Source of the DNA: Phycisphaerae bacterium
GTDB lineage: Bacteria > Planctomycetota > Phycisphaerae > UBA1845
Reading direction: 5' to 3'
Length of the DNA stretch: 64,000 bases
NCBI GenBank assembly: GCA_029260015.1
Contig: JAJDEB010000034.1
Location: 146,031-210,030 of the forward strand
This document shows positions 57,422 to 64,000 of this stretch, in pieces. The first letter of the stretch is position 1. Each line of letters opens with the position of its first letter. The position numbers and the translations under genes are program-made. Below the pieces are notes generated by a model. The model had not been told where the DNA came from and did not search any database. It saw only the letters and a program-made list of their open reading frames with translations.

Positions 57422-60259
57422 TTAGGGTCCAGCGATCACCCGCACATTGTCAATGATGCCAAAGCTCAGCGCTGCATTGTCTGAAATGGATGTAAACACA
57501 TCCATGTAGCCGATCGCAATGTTACCGCCAAGCGACACTGAACTCCCGGAATTGGCATCAATGGTTGCGATTGCCAATCCATCGATCCGCCACGTTGCCG
57601 ACCCGCCGACCTCATCGACCATGACTTCAAACTGATGCCACGCAAATCCGGCGCTACCGGCGGCGGTTGTTCCAGTCTGTTGCGCATGATTCGCCGTTTG
57701 CGTTGCTGGGGCTAATTTCGGAGAAAAGAATCCGCTCAGCGTGGCGTCCGTATTATCGTTCGACGCGACTTCGTATTGCCCGCTCGCAATCGATTGCTCG
57801 GCGGCATCTTTATAAGCGCGGAAATCTCGCGATGAACCGCCTTCGCCATCGGCTGCAAACCATGCGCCGCCACCCGACACATCGCCGAGGTTCGCCGTGC
57901 CCCCGTCCGACCCAACACCACCGGTGACGAACTCCGTCGAACCCGTACCACCGGATGGGAACGGTCCATTCGCGTTGATCCACATGTCAAACGCAAGTGT
58001 ATATTGACCTGAGAACGACTGACCAACTGGAGATAAAGTGATGGCTTCGATTGCGCCAGGTGAGACCATGTTCGCTTCAAACTTTACGCCAAGGGTAGTT
58101 GAACCAACCGAGTTCGGAGCAGACGGTATTCCATCAACGCTATAGTCGTAGGCGAAAACGACCGATGTATCTGGCCCGGTGGCGTTGATGTTCCAGTTGG
58201 CTGACGAGTCCACATCGAAATCATCACTAAAGAGAATCGCCATCGAAACGCAATTAGTTATATCTGTGTCCGGACCGTTAAGACACTGCATGAACACATC
58301 GTAGTCATTCGCATCGATGTCGTCGTCGCCGTCGCGATCGAAGCATGTACACAATGGTTCATCGTACGGCCCCCCGCCGCTGCCGGTCGAGCAATGCTGT
58401 ATCAGCGCAAAATCGCGCAGGTCAACACGGGCGTCACCGTTCATATCGCCGGCTGGCTGATTGCAACCCGACATGTACGCGACCTCATCCATCGCGCCTC
58501 GGAGAATCCACGTATCGGGATCGAGCTGAACATCAACAGCGGTTTGCGGCGTATCGATGATAAACCATTGCAATTCGCGATCGTTCTTAATGACGAATGT
58601 GTCTGTGCTCGTGTCGGCGTATTCGACGACCACATCGATCGGCATTTCAAAATCTGGAAACGATGACTGGAATTGTTCAACGTGCAGCAGGACACGATTT
58701 TGATTCCCGGCGAAGTCCGCTTGCCAACCGAATCGGTAGTAAGGCGCTCCGCCTTGATAAACCCATTGGTCAAAAAACCAGTCCATCGCCCGGCCCGAAA
58801 CCGATTCAACAATAAACTGAAAGTCGGCAGTGGTTGCAGAACTGTCTTCATAAGTCTGTCGATATTCGGCGAGCACATCGTAGAAAACGTCATCACCAAG
58901 AACGTGGCGCAGCATGTGCATTACCCACGATCCCTTGTTGTATACGTTTGTACCGCTGAAAATCTGCCCCGATGTGCTTATGTCATAGCGATAAACCGTT
59001 CCGCCAAAGCTGCTGGGGCGATACGCCATCATGTGTGACAAATACGCCGCGTGACTCCCGCCCGGTTTGCGTTCGTGCCACAACGATTCGGCGTAGCGGG
59101 CAAAGCCCTCGTTCAGCCAGATGTCGTGCCAAGTCGCGCAGGTGATCGCGTCGCCCCACCACATGTGCGCGAGTTCGTGGACGGTGCGCCGCTCGGGAAA
59201 CGATCCCTGACTGGTGATCGTTTGATGTTCCATCCCGCAGCAACCTTCAAACTGGGCGATGCCGTATTTTTCTTCTAGGAACGGATACTCGCCGAAACAG
59301 TCCGGATCGCTGAACGTTTCGATCATGCTGACGACATCGACAAGCAACGGTTGAACCGTGCTGACATCTTCCGGATAAATATAGAATTCAACCGGCATCA
59401 AGCCCGAACTGTGTACATAGTATTCTGTCCAGTGCGAGTAATTAGTCGCCGCGATCGAAACCAGATAAACCGAAATCGGAAAAGTCTCAGCCCACCGATA
59501 GCGGGCGCGACTACCCGACAGCGTATCGACGCCGTCGAACCGACCATTAGACGCAACCGTCATCCAATCCGGACTCGTCACCCACATGTCCATCGTGAAT
59601 TTGTCGTCGATCGAATTCTTGCAGGGCCACCATGCCGGTGCGTTGAACGGTTGGCTATGCGTGGCGATGACGTCGACCGCGGGCGAGCCATGTGTGCCAG
59701 AATAACCCGCAGCCGCCGAAAGATGAAACGGCGCCCCACCATACTCAACACGAACAGCAAACGCATCATCCACATCAAACGATTGGCCAAGGTCGATTTC
59801 AATCTGATCATTCGCGTGGGTAAACAAGACCGGTGCACCATCAAGCCAAACACCACCGACAACCATCACGTCAAACAGGTCAAGGGTGATCGAAGTCAGA
59901 CCATCGGACTTGCTGACAATGTCCAGCGTATTCGATCCTGTCACAGAATTTGGATTGAGGCCCAGTTCGATATCAAGAAAGCAATGGACCACATCAATGT
60001 CAGCATCGCTACCGCGCAACATAGCTGCCGGCGGAAAATCCATCGCCCGCGAGGCATGCCCGCATAGATCATCCTTGCCTTCGTCATCGAGACCACATTG
60101 CTCAACTGGCTGCGGCGGTGCGGAGTCTGGACCAGCCCACGCCACCGCTCCAATCAGTAATGGCAAGATCGCAACATGTCTGAGGATCATTCCAAGATTC
60201 TCAATTCGCATCATGATTTCCGATGATCCATCCCCAAGCGCACCGACTGCAAACTTCAC
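57422..60259 (-). CDS. Secreted M1-family aminopeptidase fused to a dockerin-like module and a C-terminal LamG/concanavalin-like domain
   Basis: Motifs GMEHQ, HELAHMWWGD and WLNEGFARY (HExxH-x18-E) are present. The exact start is uncertain; MKFAVG..., MRIENLG... and MILRHVAILPLLIGAVAWA are all possible. Confidence 0.85.
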   Translation of the reverse strand: MKFAVGALGDGSSEIMMRIENLGMILRHVAILPLLIGAVAWAGPDSAPPQPVEQCGLDDEGKDDLCGHASRAMDFPPAAMLRGSDADIDVVHCFLDIELGLNPNSVTGSNTLDIVSKSDGLTSITLDLFDVMVVGGVWLDGAPVLFTHANDQIEIDLGQSFDVDDAFAVRVEYGGAPFHLSAAAGYSGTHGSPAVDVIATHSQPFNAPAWWPCKNSIDDKFTMDMWVTSPDWMTVASNGRFDGVDTLSGSRARYRWAETFPISVYLVSIAATNYSHWTEYYVHSSGLMPVEFYIYPEDVSTVQPLLVDVVSMIETFSDPDCFGEYPFLEEKYGIAQFEGCCGMEHQTITSQGSFPERRTVHELAHMWWGDAITCATWHDIWLNEGFARYAESLWHERKPGGSHAAYLSHMMAYRPSSFGGTVYRYDISTSGQIFSGTNVYNKGSWVMHMLRHVLGDDVFYDVLAEYRQTYEDSSATTADFQFIVESVSGRAMDWFFDQWVYQGGAPYYRFGWQADFAGNQNRVLLHVEQFQSSFPDFEMPIDVVVEYADTSTDTFVIKNDRELQWFIIDTPQTAVDVQLDPDTWILRGAMDEVAYMSGCNQPAGDMNGDARVDLRDFALIQHCSTGSGGGPYDEPLCTCFDRDGDDDIDANDYDVFMQCLNGPDTDITNCVSMAILFSDDFDVDSSANWNINATGPDTSVVFAYDYSVDGIPSAPNSVGSTTLGVKFEANMVSPGAIEAITLSPVGQSFSGQYTLAFDMWINANGPFPSGGTGSTEFVTGGVGSDGGTANLGDVSGGGAWFAADGEGGSSRDFRAYKDAAEQSIASGQYEVASNDNTDATLSGFFSPKLAPATQTANHAQQTGTTAAGSAGFAWHQFEVMVDEVGGSATWRIDGLAIATIDANSGSSVSLGGNIAIGYMDVFTSISDNAALSFGIIDNVRVIAGP
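58271..58447 (-). other. Dockerin-like paired EF-hand/Cys module (internal)
   Basis: DMNGDARVDLRDFALIQHCSTGSGGGPYDEPLCTCFDRDGDDDIDANDYDVFMQCLNGP. Confidence 0.65.
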
Positions 60260-60883: not shown

Positions 60884-62818
60884 ATGAATACCGCATCGAA
60901 CTTAGAGAACCTCGACGATGACAGTAGGTCCGAGCCTTTGGCAGTACCGAGGTCCGGTCGATTCTCGCCGTTTCGACTCATTGATTGGACGTCTCGGTGG
61001 TTGGTTGAACGACGGATGTCATGGATAGCTGCTGCGATCGGCGTCGTTCTCACCCTACCCGGATTGTGGCTCGGATGGCAGACTGACGACCATTTGCATC
61101 GGGCGACCTTGACTGATGAGTTCCCAGTGATGGCGGATGCACGTCGGCCGTTTTGGGACATGTTCGCGTTCGTTAAGGAAGGGACGCTTGAAGATGGTGC
61201 GGTCATCGATCGCGGCGAGTTGCCCTGGTGGACTCCGCCGAATTATAAGATCGCGTTCTTTCGACCGGTCGCTGGCATCACGCACTGGATTGATTACAAG
61301 CTTTGGCCGCAATCACCTTGGATCATGCACGCTCAATCCATCGGGTGGTACGGGCTGACGGTTTTCGTTGCCGCCCTATTGTTTCGCAGGCTTTCAATCA
61401 CGCCGATCGCCGCAGGACTCGCCGCCCTCATCTATGCAATAAGCGATGGACACGGCCTGCCCGCAGTCTGGTTGGCTAATCGCAATGCAACGGTGGCTGC
61501 TTGCTTCGGAATTTGCTCGATACTGGCGTACGACTGGTGGCGACGTGGCGGATCGAGGGCGGGCGCGGTACTTGCTCCCTTGGCCCTTTTGGCGGCGGTC
61601 CTAGCCAACGAAGGCGCGGTGGCAGCCGGTGCGTACTTGCTGGCATATGCTATATTCATTGACCCGGACCGAACGTGGAAACGATTTGGCGCACTGCTGC
61701 CCTGTGTTGTGATTGGCGTGGCTTGGTGGTTGGCGTATCGTGCAAACGGTTATGGCGTTGTTGGCTCGGGCGTTTACGTCGACCCGGCGAATGACCCGCT
61801 GGGATTTGTTAGTGCATTCATTCGACGCGCTCCAATCCTAATCTTTGGACTCTTTTGCGTACCGCCGTCCGACTTGCACATCATGCTTTCCGAAGCGGCA
61901 TATCGCATTTTCTGGATCGCAGGCCTTTGCCTGATTGTCTTCGGTGCAACGCAACTTGCACCACATCTCAAGTCGAATAAAACTTTACGCTTTGGGTTAA
62001 TGGGTATGTTGCTCTCAATCCTGCCACCCTGCGCCACTTTTGCTTCGGATCGATTGCTTATGTTTGCAGGGCTTGGGGCCGCTATTATCATCGGGCAACT
62101 CATCGCGTCGGCTTTGAATTCAACGGTCGCAAAGTCAGCAACTCAAACGTCCAGGATTGTTGGCGGCGGGCTGATTGTAATCCACTTGATCTTTGCACCG
62201 ATTGGTTTGTTGATGGCTGCCCACAATGTCCGCAACTTTGGGGAAACGTCAAACGTGGCTGGCTTGAGTCTGCCGCACGACGAGAAGGTCAAAGATCAAC
62301 GCATGATGGCCGTCAGCGCACCATCCGGTTTCTTGTTTGCCTTCGCCAAGATATATGCAGCCACCCAACATCGAACCGTATCGAATAAGACCTTGTCGCT
62401 GGGTTCCGGTGTGTTCGAGGTCCAAGTTGAACGTCCGGACGAGCAAACGTTACTCATCAAGCAAGCAGGTGGTTGGCTGGCCCATCCCGGATGCTCACCG
62501 GCAGATGATTTCGCATGGTTCGGCGGCCACTACTTGTTTCAAACATTCGATGTTTTATTCCGCGACAGCCAACCGTTTGAAGTCGGCCAACGCATCGAGT
62601 TATCTGATTGCACGATTGAACTCGTTGAACTCACCCCGGACGCGCGACCCGCAAGAGTCCGGTTTGAATTCAAGAAACGACTAGAGGATGAATCCTATCG
62701 TTGGGTCTATTGGAAGGTTGACCGTTTCGCTGAATTCGATCTGCCTGCCGTCGGCGGATCAGTCACGTTACCCGCACCCCGGCCACCGATTGGATCGATG
62801 AATGGAAGCGACGGGTAA
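60884..62818 (+). CDS. Polytopic membrane protein, GT-C (PMT/TMTC/DUF1736-like) candidate
   Basis: There are about 12 hydrophobic segments. The first loop carries FFRPVAGITHWIDYKLW, reminiscent of the FRP...H motif of PMT_2/TMTC-type GT-C enzymes, and a soluble C-terminal domain follows. I chose the ATG at 60884 over the TTG at 60848. Confidence 0.45.
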   Translation: MNTASNLENLDDDSRSEPLAVPRSGRFSPFRLIDWTSRWLVERRMSWIAAAIGVVLTLPGLWLGWQTDDHLHRATLTDEFPVMADARRPFWDMFAFVKEGTLEDGAVIDRGELPWWTPPNYKIAFFRPVAGITHWIDYKLWPQSPWIMHAQSIGWYGLTVFVAALLFRRLSITPIAAGLAALIYAISDGHGLPAVWLANRNATVAACFGICSILAYDWWRRGGSRAGAVLAPLALLAAVLANEGAVAAGAYLLAYAIFIDPDRTWKRFGALLPCVVIGVAWWLAYRANGYGVVGSGVYVDPANDPLGFVSAFIRRAPILIFGLFCVPPSDLHIMLSEAAYRIFWIAGLCLIVFGATQLAPHLKSNKTLRFGLMGMLLSILPPCATFASDRLLMFAGLGAAIIIGQLIASALNSTVAKSATQTSRIVGGGLIVIHLIFAPIGLLMAAHNVRNFGETSNVAGLSLPHDEKVKDQRMMAVSAPSGFLFAFAKIYAATQHRTVSNKTLSLGSGVFEVQVERPDEQTLLIKQAGGWLAHPGCSPADDFAWFGGHYLFQTFDVLFRDSQPFEVGQRIELSDCTIELVELTPDARPARVRFEFKKRLEDESYRWVYWKVDRFAEFDLPAVGGSVTLPAPRPPIGSMNGSDG

Positions 62819-62857: not shown

Positions 62858-64000
62858 CTACTTTAGTACCGTCACATGACCGCGGTGCGTTTGCTTTCTA
62901 CCTCCGCCATGACCTCTAAGAGGGCCGCCGCTTGAATCGCCGCCGGCCGTCAATCCGTACTTCAAGACTGTGACGTGTCCGTGACCGCCACCAGCGGTCA
63001 TTCCAAATTTCAAAACCGTGACGTGTCCATGCCCACCGGTACAATCGCTACGCCCGCAGCGAGAACATTTCTTGCCGGCTATACTCATGCTCGGACCGGT
63101 GCCCACACCACCTCCGCCGCCAGCGACCCCGCTTAGCTTCCAAGTTCGTGGCCCGCAGCCAGGTGTCGATCGACAATCGCCTTTGCACGCCACACAATAA
63201 ACGCACTTGCCTCCGCAATCGTCACGGCCGCAGTTCTTGCAGGTTCTTGCGACAGGACTCGATCCACCAGTACCACCTCCACCGGATGCGATGCCACCAT
63301 TGGTGTTGTTTGAACGCGACGAGTTGTATCCTACGCCGGTTGTACTTTCGGCTCCTTTTAGCACAGTGACATGCCCACGATGACGGACGCTGTTGGCAGT
63401 GGGCGGTAACTCGTTCGGACATGAATCTACCGATGACACACATGTTCCATCCGGACACGGATAAGGTGTTTCCATCGGACAACCCGAACCACCGCCCGGA
63501 GCCGCGTTCACCTTTTTGGAAAGGTCTGCGCCAGCTTTGAACTTCACTACGTTCTTCGCTGCGATCTTGATTTCCTTGCCCGTTTGAGGATTGCGACCAG
63601 TGCGCGCGGCCCGTTTTGAGATCGAAAATGAGCCAAAACCGACCAGGCTAATCTTGTCTCCCTTCTTGAGACTGGCACCATCTTTCGCCATCGCGTCGAT
63701 GAGTTCAGCTTTATTCATCAGTCCGAACGGATCGGAATGCGTCCAAGGATTGTTACCGCCATAGGTGTACGCATTGCCATTATTCAAGCTGTCAGCCCAC
63801 GCTCCCAACGGGTCGCGGGAGATGAACCTGCCGGAAATCGGATCGTGGTAGCGATTGCGGTTGTAGTAGAGGCCCGTCGCATCATCGTAGCGTCGCCCCG
63901 TGAATAGATATGGATTCTCGACCAGCGATGTCGGGATCGATACGCCCGCAGCATCAAAAACTTCCGGCTGACCGTAGTCCTGATATTCGTAGCGCTCGAC
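62858..64000 (-). CDS. 3' end of an Rhs/YD-repeat protein: the Rhs-associated core plus a novel variable C-terminal tip. The 5' end lies beyond the window.
   Basis: The reverse frame is open from 64000 and reads [19 protein letters not shown]...[67 protein letters not shown] 286-aa tip follows. The track start at 63808 is only the first in-frame TTG, which encodes Leu of DPLG. Confidence 0.85.
62939..63034 (-). repeat. Tandem 48-nt (16-aa) coding repeat GHGHVTVLK(F/Y)G(M/L)TAGG, two units, inside the Rhs tip
   Basis: I read the units at 62987-63034 and 62939-62986. The peptide is nearly identical between units while many codons differ. Confidence 0.85.
63509..63718 (-). other. HU/IHF-like DNA-binding segment fused in frame directly after the Rhs DPFGL motif
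   Basis: [71 protein letters not shown] matches the HU beta-arm consensus GFG.F....RAAR.GRNP.TGE.I.I.A...V.FK.G. It lacks about 20 residues of helix 2. Confidence 0.7.

Follow-up and report, generated by a model that had tools for sequence, protein, structure and literature searches.

A short, almost invariant peptide motif in the modular tail of a Phycisphaerae Rhs protein and in unrelated proteins

A 64,000-nucleotide stretch of DNA from a Phycisphaerae bacterium (GenBank assembly GCA_029260015.1, contig JAJDEB010000034.1, positions 146,031 to 210,030; the whole stretch is called the window here) ends within a gene for an Rhs protein whose C-terminal tail carries the heptapeptide GHVTVLK four times. 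This heptad belongs to an uncatalogued, almost invariant heptapeptide box, G-H-V-T-[V/L]-L-K, which usually stands after D, N, R or H and before A, S or G. With high confidence, we regard the tail as a modular, non-enzymatic Rhs cargo without a confidently predicted fold, and the heptads as an uncatalogued extracytoplasmic motif under strong purifying selection. Rhs proteins are well understood as shells around enzymatic toxins with matching immunity proteins, and they are mostly delivered by type VI secretion systems (T6SS). The window protein and at least four others instead have a non-enzymatic tail composed of very short conserved modules and no immunity gene. The heptad itself is unusual, being near-invariant under full synonymous codon use and absent from Pfam, NCBIfam, PDB and the searchable literature.

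The heptapeptide in the window and in other genomes

Translation of the minus strand from position 64,000 down to 62,858 yields 380 residues with GHVTVLK at the end. A scripted search of this translation located the heptad at 63356-63376, 63008-63028, 62960-62980 and 62861-62881 (boxes 1 to 4, all on the minus strand). The Lys of box 4 directly precedes the stop codon at 62858-62860, and the box forms the exact C-terminus of the protein (62858-62881 with the stop codon). Each box is written with a 21-mer of its own, GGGCATGTCACTGTGCTAAAA, GGACACGTCACGGTTTTGAAA, GGACACGTCACAGTCTTGAAG and GGTCATGTGACGGTACTAAAG; on this codon diversity, an origin of the heptads as a DNA repeat or by slippage was rejected. 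An earlier, sequence-only reading of the window had described the four copies, their coordinates, their differing codons and the place of the last one at the C-terminus, all of which was reproduced exactly. At the DNA level, a degenerate pattern for HVTxLK occurs four times in the 64-kb window, compared to 0.00 in 100 dinucleotide-preserving shuffles. Boxes 2 and 3 lie in two tandem units of 16 residues. These are real, yet occupy 62936-63031 on the minus strand, one codon off the phase proposed before (62939-63034). Since the two units agree in only 37 of 48 DNA positions (77%), they represent an old duplication and no fresh slippage.

The box was then sought in a 596-Gb genome collection with a DNA pattern of two HVTxLK copies 15-45 nt apart, which fixes H, the first V, T and K, and half fixes Leu. 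The scan revealed 14 loci, where about 0.3 were expected by chance according to our own calculation from base counts under equal base frequencies. All 14 are in frame, and Gly, which the pattern does not demand, precedes every copy except two. A metagenome scan served as a control. Of its 17 loci, four were true and 13 were chance matches that were out of frame or in DNA repeats; in 11 of the latter, Gly precedes neither copy, and two are plain DNA repeats. Among the metagenome contigs, L019, L026, L028 and L034 (handles beginning with L and P refer to our search results) contain tandem DNA repeats encoding HVTLFK or KHVTVLKHLAR, which are not the motif. A preceding Gly is missing in L019, L026 and L034, while the copies in L028 read GHVTLFK in identical repeat units.

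The pooled count is 71 Gly-preceded copies in 19 loci. These are written in 67 distinct 21-mers, which yield only three peptides (60 GHVTVLK, 10 GHVTLLK and one GHVTILK) and thus indicate selection on the peptide. All synonymous codons of G, H, V, T, L and K are in use, and the GC content of the host contigs ranges from 36% to 74%. The proposal of the sequence-only reading that the peptide rather than the DNA is conserved is therefore borne out both within the gene and across the census. Of the 71 copies, 55 have D, R, N or H directly before the heptad (position -1), and 52 have A, S or G directly after it (position +1). A protein may contain from one to 11 copies, the maximum being reached in L010, separated by spacers of 4 to about 40 residues. 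One copy in the Bacteroidota protein P0005 ends in R (GHVTLLR). The tail of the window Rhs fits the box as defined here, i.e., G-H-V-T-[V/L/I]-L-K in an exported protein, usually with two or more copies in polar or Gly-rich linkers.

The motif was not found in plasmid, phage and viral contig collections, and its strings are not mentioned in the searchable literature of 8.3 million papers. No family model covers it in the other heptad carriers, and those present in NCBI are named "hypothetical protein". A profile built from three concatenated heptad contexts gave at least two matches among 5.8 billion proteins, under an E-value limit that is strict for so short a motif.

Homologues of the window Rhs keep the heptad. 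The tails of the window, L007 and L012 proteins align poorly save at the heptads, and no run of invariant columns is longer than one heptad. The window tail holds four heptads, L007 five, L012 seven and L005 two. The sequence-only reading had named loss of the heptad in homologues as the outcome that would speak for mere drift; the opposite was found, as L007 and L012 retain five to seven copies in a tail that can barely be aligned.

The two-copy HVTxLK scan found the heptad in other Rhs tips, where the sequence-only reading had suggested looking, and beyond them. The carriers are PVC bacteria (Planctomycetes, Verrucomicrobia, Chlamydiae and relatives), Bacteroidota, a Halobacteriovorax and high-GC proteobacteria-like genomes. 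The record labels of two contigs from metagenome-assembled genomes look wrong for their composition, namely "Campylobacterales" for L007, with 56% GC and an Rhs 48% identical to that of the window, and "Enterobacteriaceae" for L017, with 71% GC; phylum counts should not rest on them. Among the carriers, a single record, Verrucomicrobiaceae bacterium E54, is not marked as a metagenome-assembled genome and may therefore exist as a culture. Rhs genes account for about 60% of the loci, and in them the box occupies one of two places, the linker immediately preceding the shell or the C-terminal tail. The tails comprise those of the window, L005 (Verrucomicrobiaceae), L007, L010 (Kiritimatiellia) and L012 (Phycisphaerales). 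N-terminal linkers with the box occur in L006, L008, L009, L010, L015, L025 and L033 and are often followed by DxDCDG; in L009, the linker is located between an IPT/TIG domain and DUF6531 (Pfam). In the PVC Rhs linkers of L009 (3626-7999), L010, L015 and L025, KKGYDYYQAQS and (K)KG[LI]NAVNVK stand just upstream of the heptads, with EPPxWPPAGP before and DxDCDG after, so that these linkers appear to be a string of short motifs.

The remaining carriers are diverse. In L013 and L018, both from Bacteroidota, an array of YYVGHVTLLK[KR]NG adjoins an outer-membrane beta-barrel region, which is recognised by weak OMP_b-brl matches in L013 and from sequence only in L018. Pfam matches of the Bacteroidota arrays to PurK_C and MbnP were below the cut-offs and were rejected as chance likeness to the GHVT strand. 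L014, L017 and L024 encode lipoproteins with coiled coils, and L011 a secreted Halobacteriovorax protein with four heptads before the second of two HU copies. L004, P0005 and P0004 are small proteins, with signal peptides in the first two. In L016, two heptads take the place of a loop in a 1510-residue protein with nine T6SS Hcp domains. This protein (L016:2349-6878, minus strand) consists of nine tandem Hcp domains (PF05638, 778 bits) with repeated FV[LV]PH[VI]LE motifs; its contig was binned as a Thermoplasmata archaeon, which is either wrong binning or an odd horizontal transfer. The settings of the motif thus are Gly- or Asp-rich linkers, an Hcp-domain loop and exact C-termini. A signal peptide or lipobox-like start is present in every carrier with a visible N-terminus (L004, L008, L009, L011, L013, L014, L015, L017, L018 and P0005). 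Across 15 loci, no neighbouring gene is shared.

The Rhs protein and the modules of its tail

As the window cuts the gene at position 64,000, the complete gene was taken from a public contig (Logan SRR15505512, L003), found via the neighbouring protein of 644 residues. It has a length of 5709 nt (L003:11975-17683), and its product of 1902 residues starts with a signal-peptide-like segment, after which come a dockerin/EF-hand-like segment, DUF6531, the RHS repeats and the YD shell, with matches to DUF6531, RHS_repeat and TEN_YD-shell. The end of the Rhs core (63719-63985, minus strand) is matched by NCBIfam model TIGR03696 (Rhs_assc_core) with 65.2 bits against a cut-off of 32.5. The match covers residues 6-94 of the window translation and ends at DPFGL (63719-63733). 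The former description of the region as an Rhs tip is thus correct: an RHS-associated core directly upstream of a variable tip, the shell and DPxGL are all present. By its sequence, DPFGL is an autoproteolysis motif, and self-cleavage is predicted here.

In a collection of 15 billion proteins, the 1902-residue protein forms a 90%-identity cluster of its own. Its nearest relatives belong to Phycisphaerales-type PVC bacteria. It shares 48% identity with the L007 Rhs over 1636 residues and 43% with the L012 Rhs over 1892 residues, and the N-terminal architecture is common to the three. A second DPxGL, after NPW, is missing in L007, L010 and L012.

Variable C-terminal tips are characteristic of Rhs/YD polymorphic toxins and TcC-type shells (Zhang et al. 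2012, PMC3482391). The window protein resembles these in having, after core and DPxGL, a modular C-terminal region that differs between relatives and whose size of 286 residues is compatible with encapsulation. It differs from them in that the tip contains no recognisable enzyme or pore-forming domain, is of low complexity and obtains no confident AlphaFold fold. Hence, the gene is an Rhs member by core, shell and DPxGL, and lacks the recognisable toxin domain and the adjacent immunity gene of the classical cassette.

The tip downstream of DPFGL starts with MNKAEL, is basic (pI 9.7), and contains 20% Gly and 15 Cys. Its first 70 residues (63509-63718, minus strand) form an HU/IHF-type module, which keeps helix 1 and the beta-arms and has lost helix 2. 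Pfam PF00216 (Bac_DNA_binding) matches with 74.3 bits against 22.4, over profile positions 35-90 only, so that the earlier notion of an HU-like part was right for a partial profile. In alignment with HU copy 1 of L011, a gap of 19 residues falls on helix 2, while the DNA-binding arm is intact; to HU copy 2 of L011, which is helix-less, the module is 58% identical. HU/IHF membership is thus supported by the Pfam threshold, but the fold is incomplete without helix 2, the dimerisation body. The arm retains RNPQTG. In some members of the Bacteroidetes HU-HIG clade, the HU domain is followed by a Gly-rich tail with a short conserved extended segment (Burroughs et al. 2017, PMC5499826). The window HU likewise precedes a Gly-rich region with such a segment; in contrast to HU-HIG, it lacks helix 2, is fused to an Rhs shell and is exported, and the HU-HIG model reaches 14.2 bits where the cut-off is 26.2. 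In the Halobacteriovorax metagenome-assembled genome (L011:5768-6856, minus strand), the secreted protein is a "split HU": copy 1 consists of helices without the DNA-binding arm, followed by about 200 residues and four heptads, and then by copy 2 with the arm and without both N-terminal helices.

Three Cys elements and two Gly tracts follow, and both the placement of the elements at 63416-63481, 63173-63241 and 63029-63067 (minus strand) and the succession of each knuckle upon a Gly tract agree with the sequence-only reading. The first element (63416-63481) is a four-Cys unit of 22 residues whose sequence is like that of an LDL-receptor class A (LDLa) module over the module's first two thirds. 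A phmmer search of the tail against 1.84 billion representatives found two proteins, P0001 (E=2.4e-7) and P0002, aligned at this unit only; P0001 repeats the unit, and its repeat matches PF00057 at positions 2-26. With LDLa, the window unit shares the half C-x7-C-x-[DN]-G-x-C-V-x6-C seen in P0001, but it has four of the six Cys, no calcium-binding acidic cluster and no PF00057 match on the tail. Consequently, the earlier statement that no family is recognised stands for the 216-residue tail overall, and does not stand for the first Cys stretch.

The second element (63173-63241) is a Cys cluster of 23 residues that opens with a C-x2-C-G-x3-C-x3-C knuckle after the Gly tract at 63263-63298. The third (63029-63067) is a C-x2-C-G-x3-C-x3-H knuckle after the Gly tract at 63095-63130, of which the His just before box 2 is possibly a fourth ligand, judging from its position. 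The CxxC...C..C spacing of a zinc knuckle is present twice in the window tail and six times in that of L012, without a model match. The L012 copies have the form C-x2-C-G-x3-C-x(1-3)-C/H and appear as CPGCG, CPSCG or CGICG, the signature of rubredoxin-type knuckles. As in rubredoxin-type or CPxCG knuckles, the window units contain two further Cys or His within 8 residues, but no Pfam model reaches significance on the tail. Metal binding by these putative knuckles is plausible. The presence of HU arms and knuckles suggests that the released tip may bind nucleic acid; the LDLa-like unit of disulfide type, on the other hand, points to a role outside the cytoplasm, which conflicts with that reading.

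Another short module is an 11-residue motif at 63299-63331 (minus strand), common to heptad-tailed Rhs proteins. The form (D)[YH]NSSRSN[KN][ST] is shared by three tails, twice in L007 (DYNSSRSNKSN), once in L005 (DHNSSRSNKTS) and once in the window. D-x-N-x-S is the extended bacterial N-glycosylation sequon. The L005 and L007 copies have this form, while the window copy has G at position -2.

The modules vary in number between the tails. CxxCG knuckles are found twice in the window, once in L007 (CPPCG), six times in L012 and not in L005, whereas the (D)YNSSRSN motif occurs once in the window, twice in L007, not in L012 and once in L005. The 13-residue end of the HU module is present in the window and, as a remnant, in L007, and is missing in L012 and L005. 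As far as can be read from the sequences, related Rhs tails are the same modules in different numbers. As for the extreme C-termini, the Kiritimatiellia Rhs of L010 terminates in ...RGHVTVLK*, just as the window Rhs does in GHVTVLK*. The L007 and L012 proteins end in NNISSR* and NPISTR* (form ...N.IS[ST]R*) and that of L005 similarly in KTSSTR, such that the last residue is basic in all five heptad-tailed Rhs proteins (window, L005, L007, L010 and L012).

Known families do not account for the tail. At E<=10, no Pfam or NCBIfam model matches its 216 residues; a comparison with PDB sequences gave nothing meaningful, a gelsolin chimera aligning at the Gly linker only. For the whole tip, the two model collections give HU alone at the same limit and PDB nothing relevant, so that no toxin domain was found. 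A word-index protein search with the tail, plain or Gly-masked, returned no match, which is weak evidence as the search also missed the cluster representative of the 1902-residue protein itself. In all, the earlier claim of novelty survives and widens: no described family covers the tail in Pfam, NCBIfam, PDB, the 1.84 billion representatives and the searchable literature. RTX beta-rolls were rejected, as the nonapeptide GGxGxDxUx does not fit around the heptads in any register and Pfam gives no match. Membership of the TonB or TolB boxes was discarded with their consensus sequences missing from the tail, and that of the Lpp boxes finds no support in the sequence, where the C-terminal Lys stands in the context VLK rather than YRK. 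In single-sequence mode, AlphaFold2 gave the tip a mean predicted local distance difference test (pLDDT) score of 36.8, with only the four-Cys unit at about 65, and the three-heptad protein P0004 a score of 56; in neither were strands predicted at the heptads.

Nor was a plausible immunity gene found downstream of the five heptad-tailed Rhs genes. In the window, the convergent gene of a 644-residue membrane protein without Pfam family (60884-62818, plus strand) ends 40 nt from the Rhs stop and thus leaves no room for one. The next gene is likewise convergent in L005 and L012. An oxidoreductase of the Old-Yellow-Enzyme type follows the Rhs gene of L010, and on the same strand downstream of the L007 Rhs there is nothing longer than 55 residues.

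A possible docking role and its alternatives

Our preferred explanation, to which we assign a probability of roughly 0.35, is that the heptad may serve as a docking box for a conserved partner in the cell envelope. The box would be a short linear motif read by a conserved envelope protein, probably as an added beta-strand. The cell's own barrel proteins and lipoproteins would engage the partner through it, and Rhs proteins not delivered by a T6SS would use it to hold on to the envelope or to enter through it. In the window Rhs, cleavage at DPFGL would free the tail from the shell; docking of the freed tail would be the task of the boxes, and binding of nucleic acid that of the HU arms and knuckles. 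Such a tail would not be an enzyme and would need no immunity protein.

Conservation of this kind in bacteria usually marks a site that is read by a machine; TonB boxes, lipoboxes and sortase signals are examples. The heptad is preserved to the exact residue across phyla, in flexible linkers with variable spacing, in unrelated proteins and without a linked gene, and a site read by a conserved housekeeping factor of the envelope would be expected to show such a pattern. Along this line, the lack of a shared neighbouring gene fits a housekeeping partner encoded elsewhere. In colicins and pyocins, TonB and TolB boxes within Gly-rich, disordered translocation domains act as an added beta-strand. 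Like the window tail, secreted antibacterial proteins of this kind bear boxes of 5-7 residues within disordered stretches rich in Gly, Ser and Asn, and like the heptad these boxes are found in the cell's own envelope proteins as well. The analogy is one of mechanism only: the heptad has no likeness to ETVVV or DGSGW, and the window copies are multiple, often tandem, and C-terminal. It would also account for the presence of the heptad in the cell's own envelope proteins and in Rhs proteins alike.

Several points weigh against a docking box. The heptad is unlike known TonB or TolB boxes. In arrays with a period of 11-12 residues (L006, L010, L033), several large partners would not find room at the same time, and a folded beta-structure or an enzyme site would suit such arrays better. 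The Bacteroidota arrays could face either the periplasm or the cell surface. L016 was binned as archaeal, i.e., from an organism group (Thermoplasmata) with no bacterial envelope, a binning that is doubtful given the nine T6SS Hcp domains. Inside the Rhs shell, the tip cannot reach an envelope partner before its release. Finally, the census is small, and its 19 loci were chosen for two exact copies. The constancy of H, the first V, T and K is therefore in part a product of this selection, which had no hold on the Gly, on whether position 5 is V or L, or on further copies in a protein.

Tentatively, and as a possibility rather than an expectation, the docking idea can be widened: GHVTVLK may be the recognition tag of an undescribed envelope pathway (a receptor, an anchoring enzyme or an import route) in PVC bacteria, Bacteroidota and other diderms, which T6SS-independent Rhs proteins exploit to attach or to enter. 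If this were true, finding the reader of the tag would establish a new class of short linear motifs in bacteria, together with a new route by which Rhs cargo is delivered without an immunity protein. If the motif is machine-read, it could be used as a peptide bait and would offer a handle on the envelope partner, and also on how PVC Rhs proteins with signal peptides, which are probably Sec-exported, attach to cells or reach their targets.

Among the alternatives, the best placed, albeit unlikely, is a structural repeat, in which the heptads would be beta-strands that pair with each other (as hairpins, a beta-roll or solenoid, or cross-beta) and give a cargo or linker that is sticky or associates with itself. 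Beta-strands are strongly favoured by the V-T-V-L core, 33 of the 71 copies come with D-G or N-G, both classic tight-turn sequences, in front, and L006, L010 and L033 contain the regular 11-12-residue arrays. In L016, the two heptads are five residues apart and replace an Hcp loop, as a hairpin insertion would. Yet what such repeats conserve is a pattern; they do not preserve seven residues exactly from phylum to phylum. In many carriers, the copies number one or two or are widely spaced, and H-V-T-V-L-K is not cleanly amphipathic. The beta-arch or solenoid and the self-association favoured by the sequence-only reading thus find no support: the AlphaFold2 models, weak evidence as single-sequence runs, have no strands at the heptads, and these occur in unrelated proteins as single copies, as pairs or as arrays, the spacers ranging from 4 to about 40 residues. 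Their strict invariance between phyla agrees better with a partner that recognises them than with a structural repeat.

Less likely again is a wall-anchoring tag. Here, the invariant Lys would be joined to peptidoglycan by L,D-transpeptidases, as in the Lpp box, or the box would bind the wall noncovalently, in either case tethering outer-membrane and Rhs proteins. A six-residue C-terminal Lys box suffices for peptidoglycan attachment, and LimB is attached via an internal Lys (PMC12274547), which provides a precedent. These are likewise very short, Lys-terminated motifs of envelope proteins, either C-terminal or internal (PMC12274547). The combination of beta-barrel and array in L013 and L018 is arranged like OmpA, that of lipoprotein, coiled coil and heptads in L014, L017 and L024 like Lpp; two Rhs proteins end at the box Lys, and the P0005 gene adjoins a gene of the OmpA family. 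However, the Lpp and LimB sequences are unrelated to the heptad. Lpp boxes (YRK, YTK) are unlike VLK and have no strict consensus, so that the invariance of seven residues is unexplained and without parallel among them. In addition, a cargo tip inside an Rhs shell would be an odd substrate, and the R-terminated copy of P0005 does not supply the Lys.

We give low odds to a metal site, in which the box His, with nearby H, D or N (HxGH, DGH, NGH) and the knuckles, would bind Zn, Cu or Ni and form a metal-binding module or one with metal-dependent folding. The His is invariant and is accompanied by another His at position -2 in 18 of the 71 copies and by D, N or H at position -1 in 42; the L010 spacers are rich in EHNGH, and CxxCG knuckles stand beside the heptads in the window and L012 tails. 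A single His per box, however, is not a site on its own, a second ligand is absent near many copies, e.g., in L014 and L017, and the invariant V-T-V-L-K would be left without a role.

Quite improbable is a processing site at which a conserved Lys-specific envelope protease would cut after the box and release peptides or untether the protein. The residue after the invariant Lys is small (A, S or G) or, in the Bacteroidota proteins, basic like the Lys itself; this Lys is the natural C-terminus of two proteins, and arrays such as that of L010 resemble precursors of multi-copy peptides. However, the spacers are free in length and sequence with no evident conserved product, and the loci have no protease gene linked to them. 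Very improbable, and to be dismissed, are lineage-specific low-complexity drift, replication slippage or a missed ordinary enzymatic toxin. In favour of these are the high Gly content of the tail and its tandem unit of 48 nt. Yet the two units have diverged to 77% DNA identity, the motif recurs with free synonymous variation in unrelated proteins over the whole GC range given above, and a toxin would leave the missing family match, predicted fold and immunity gene unexplained.

Genes near the Rhs loci

Outside the window, a gene for a radical SAM enzyme of the B12-binding type (Radical_SAM_N2 and Radical_SAM; L003:18093-19922, minus strand) lies about 400 nt upstream of the Rhs gene on the same strand. 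It was considered as a modifying enzyme and rejected, being absent beside the related Rhs genes of L007 and L012.

Within the window, 57422-60259 (minus strand) encodes an M1-family aminopeptidase of about 930-945 residues with a Cys-flanked dockerin/EF-hand-like segment (GDMNGDARVDLRDF...). This segment resembles the N-terminal segment of the window Rhs and of its relatives in L007 and L012, and a dockerin domain also occurs in the convergent neighbour of the L012 Rhs.

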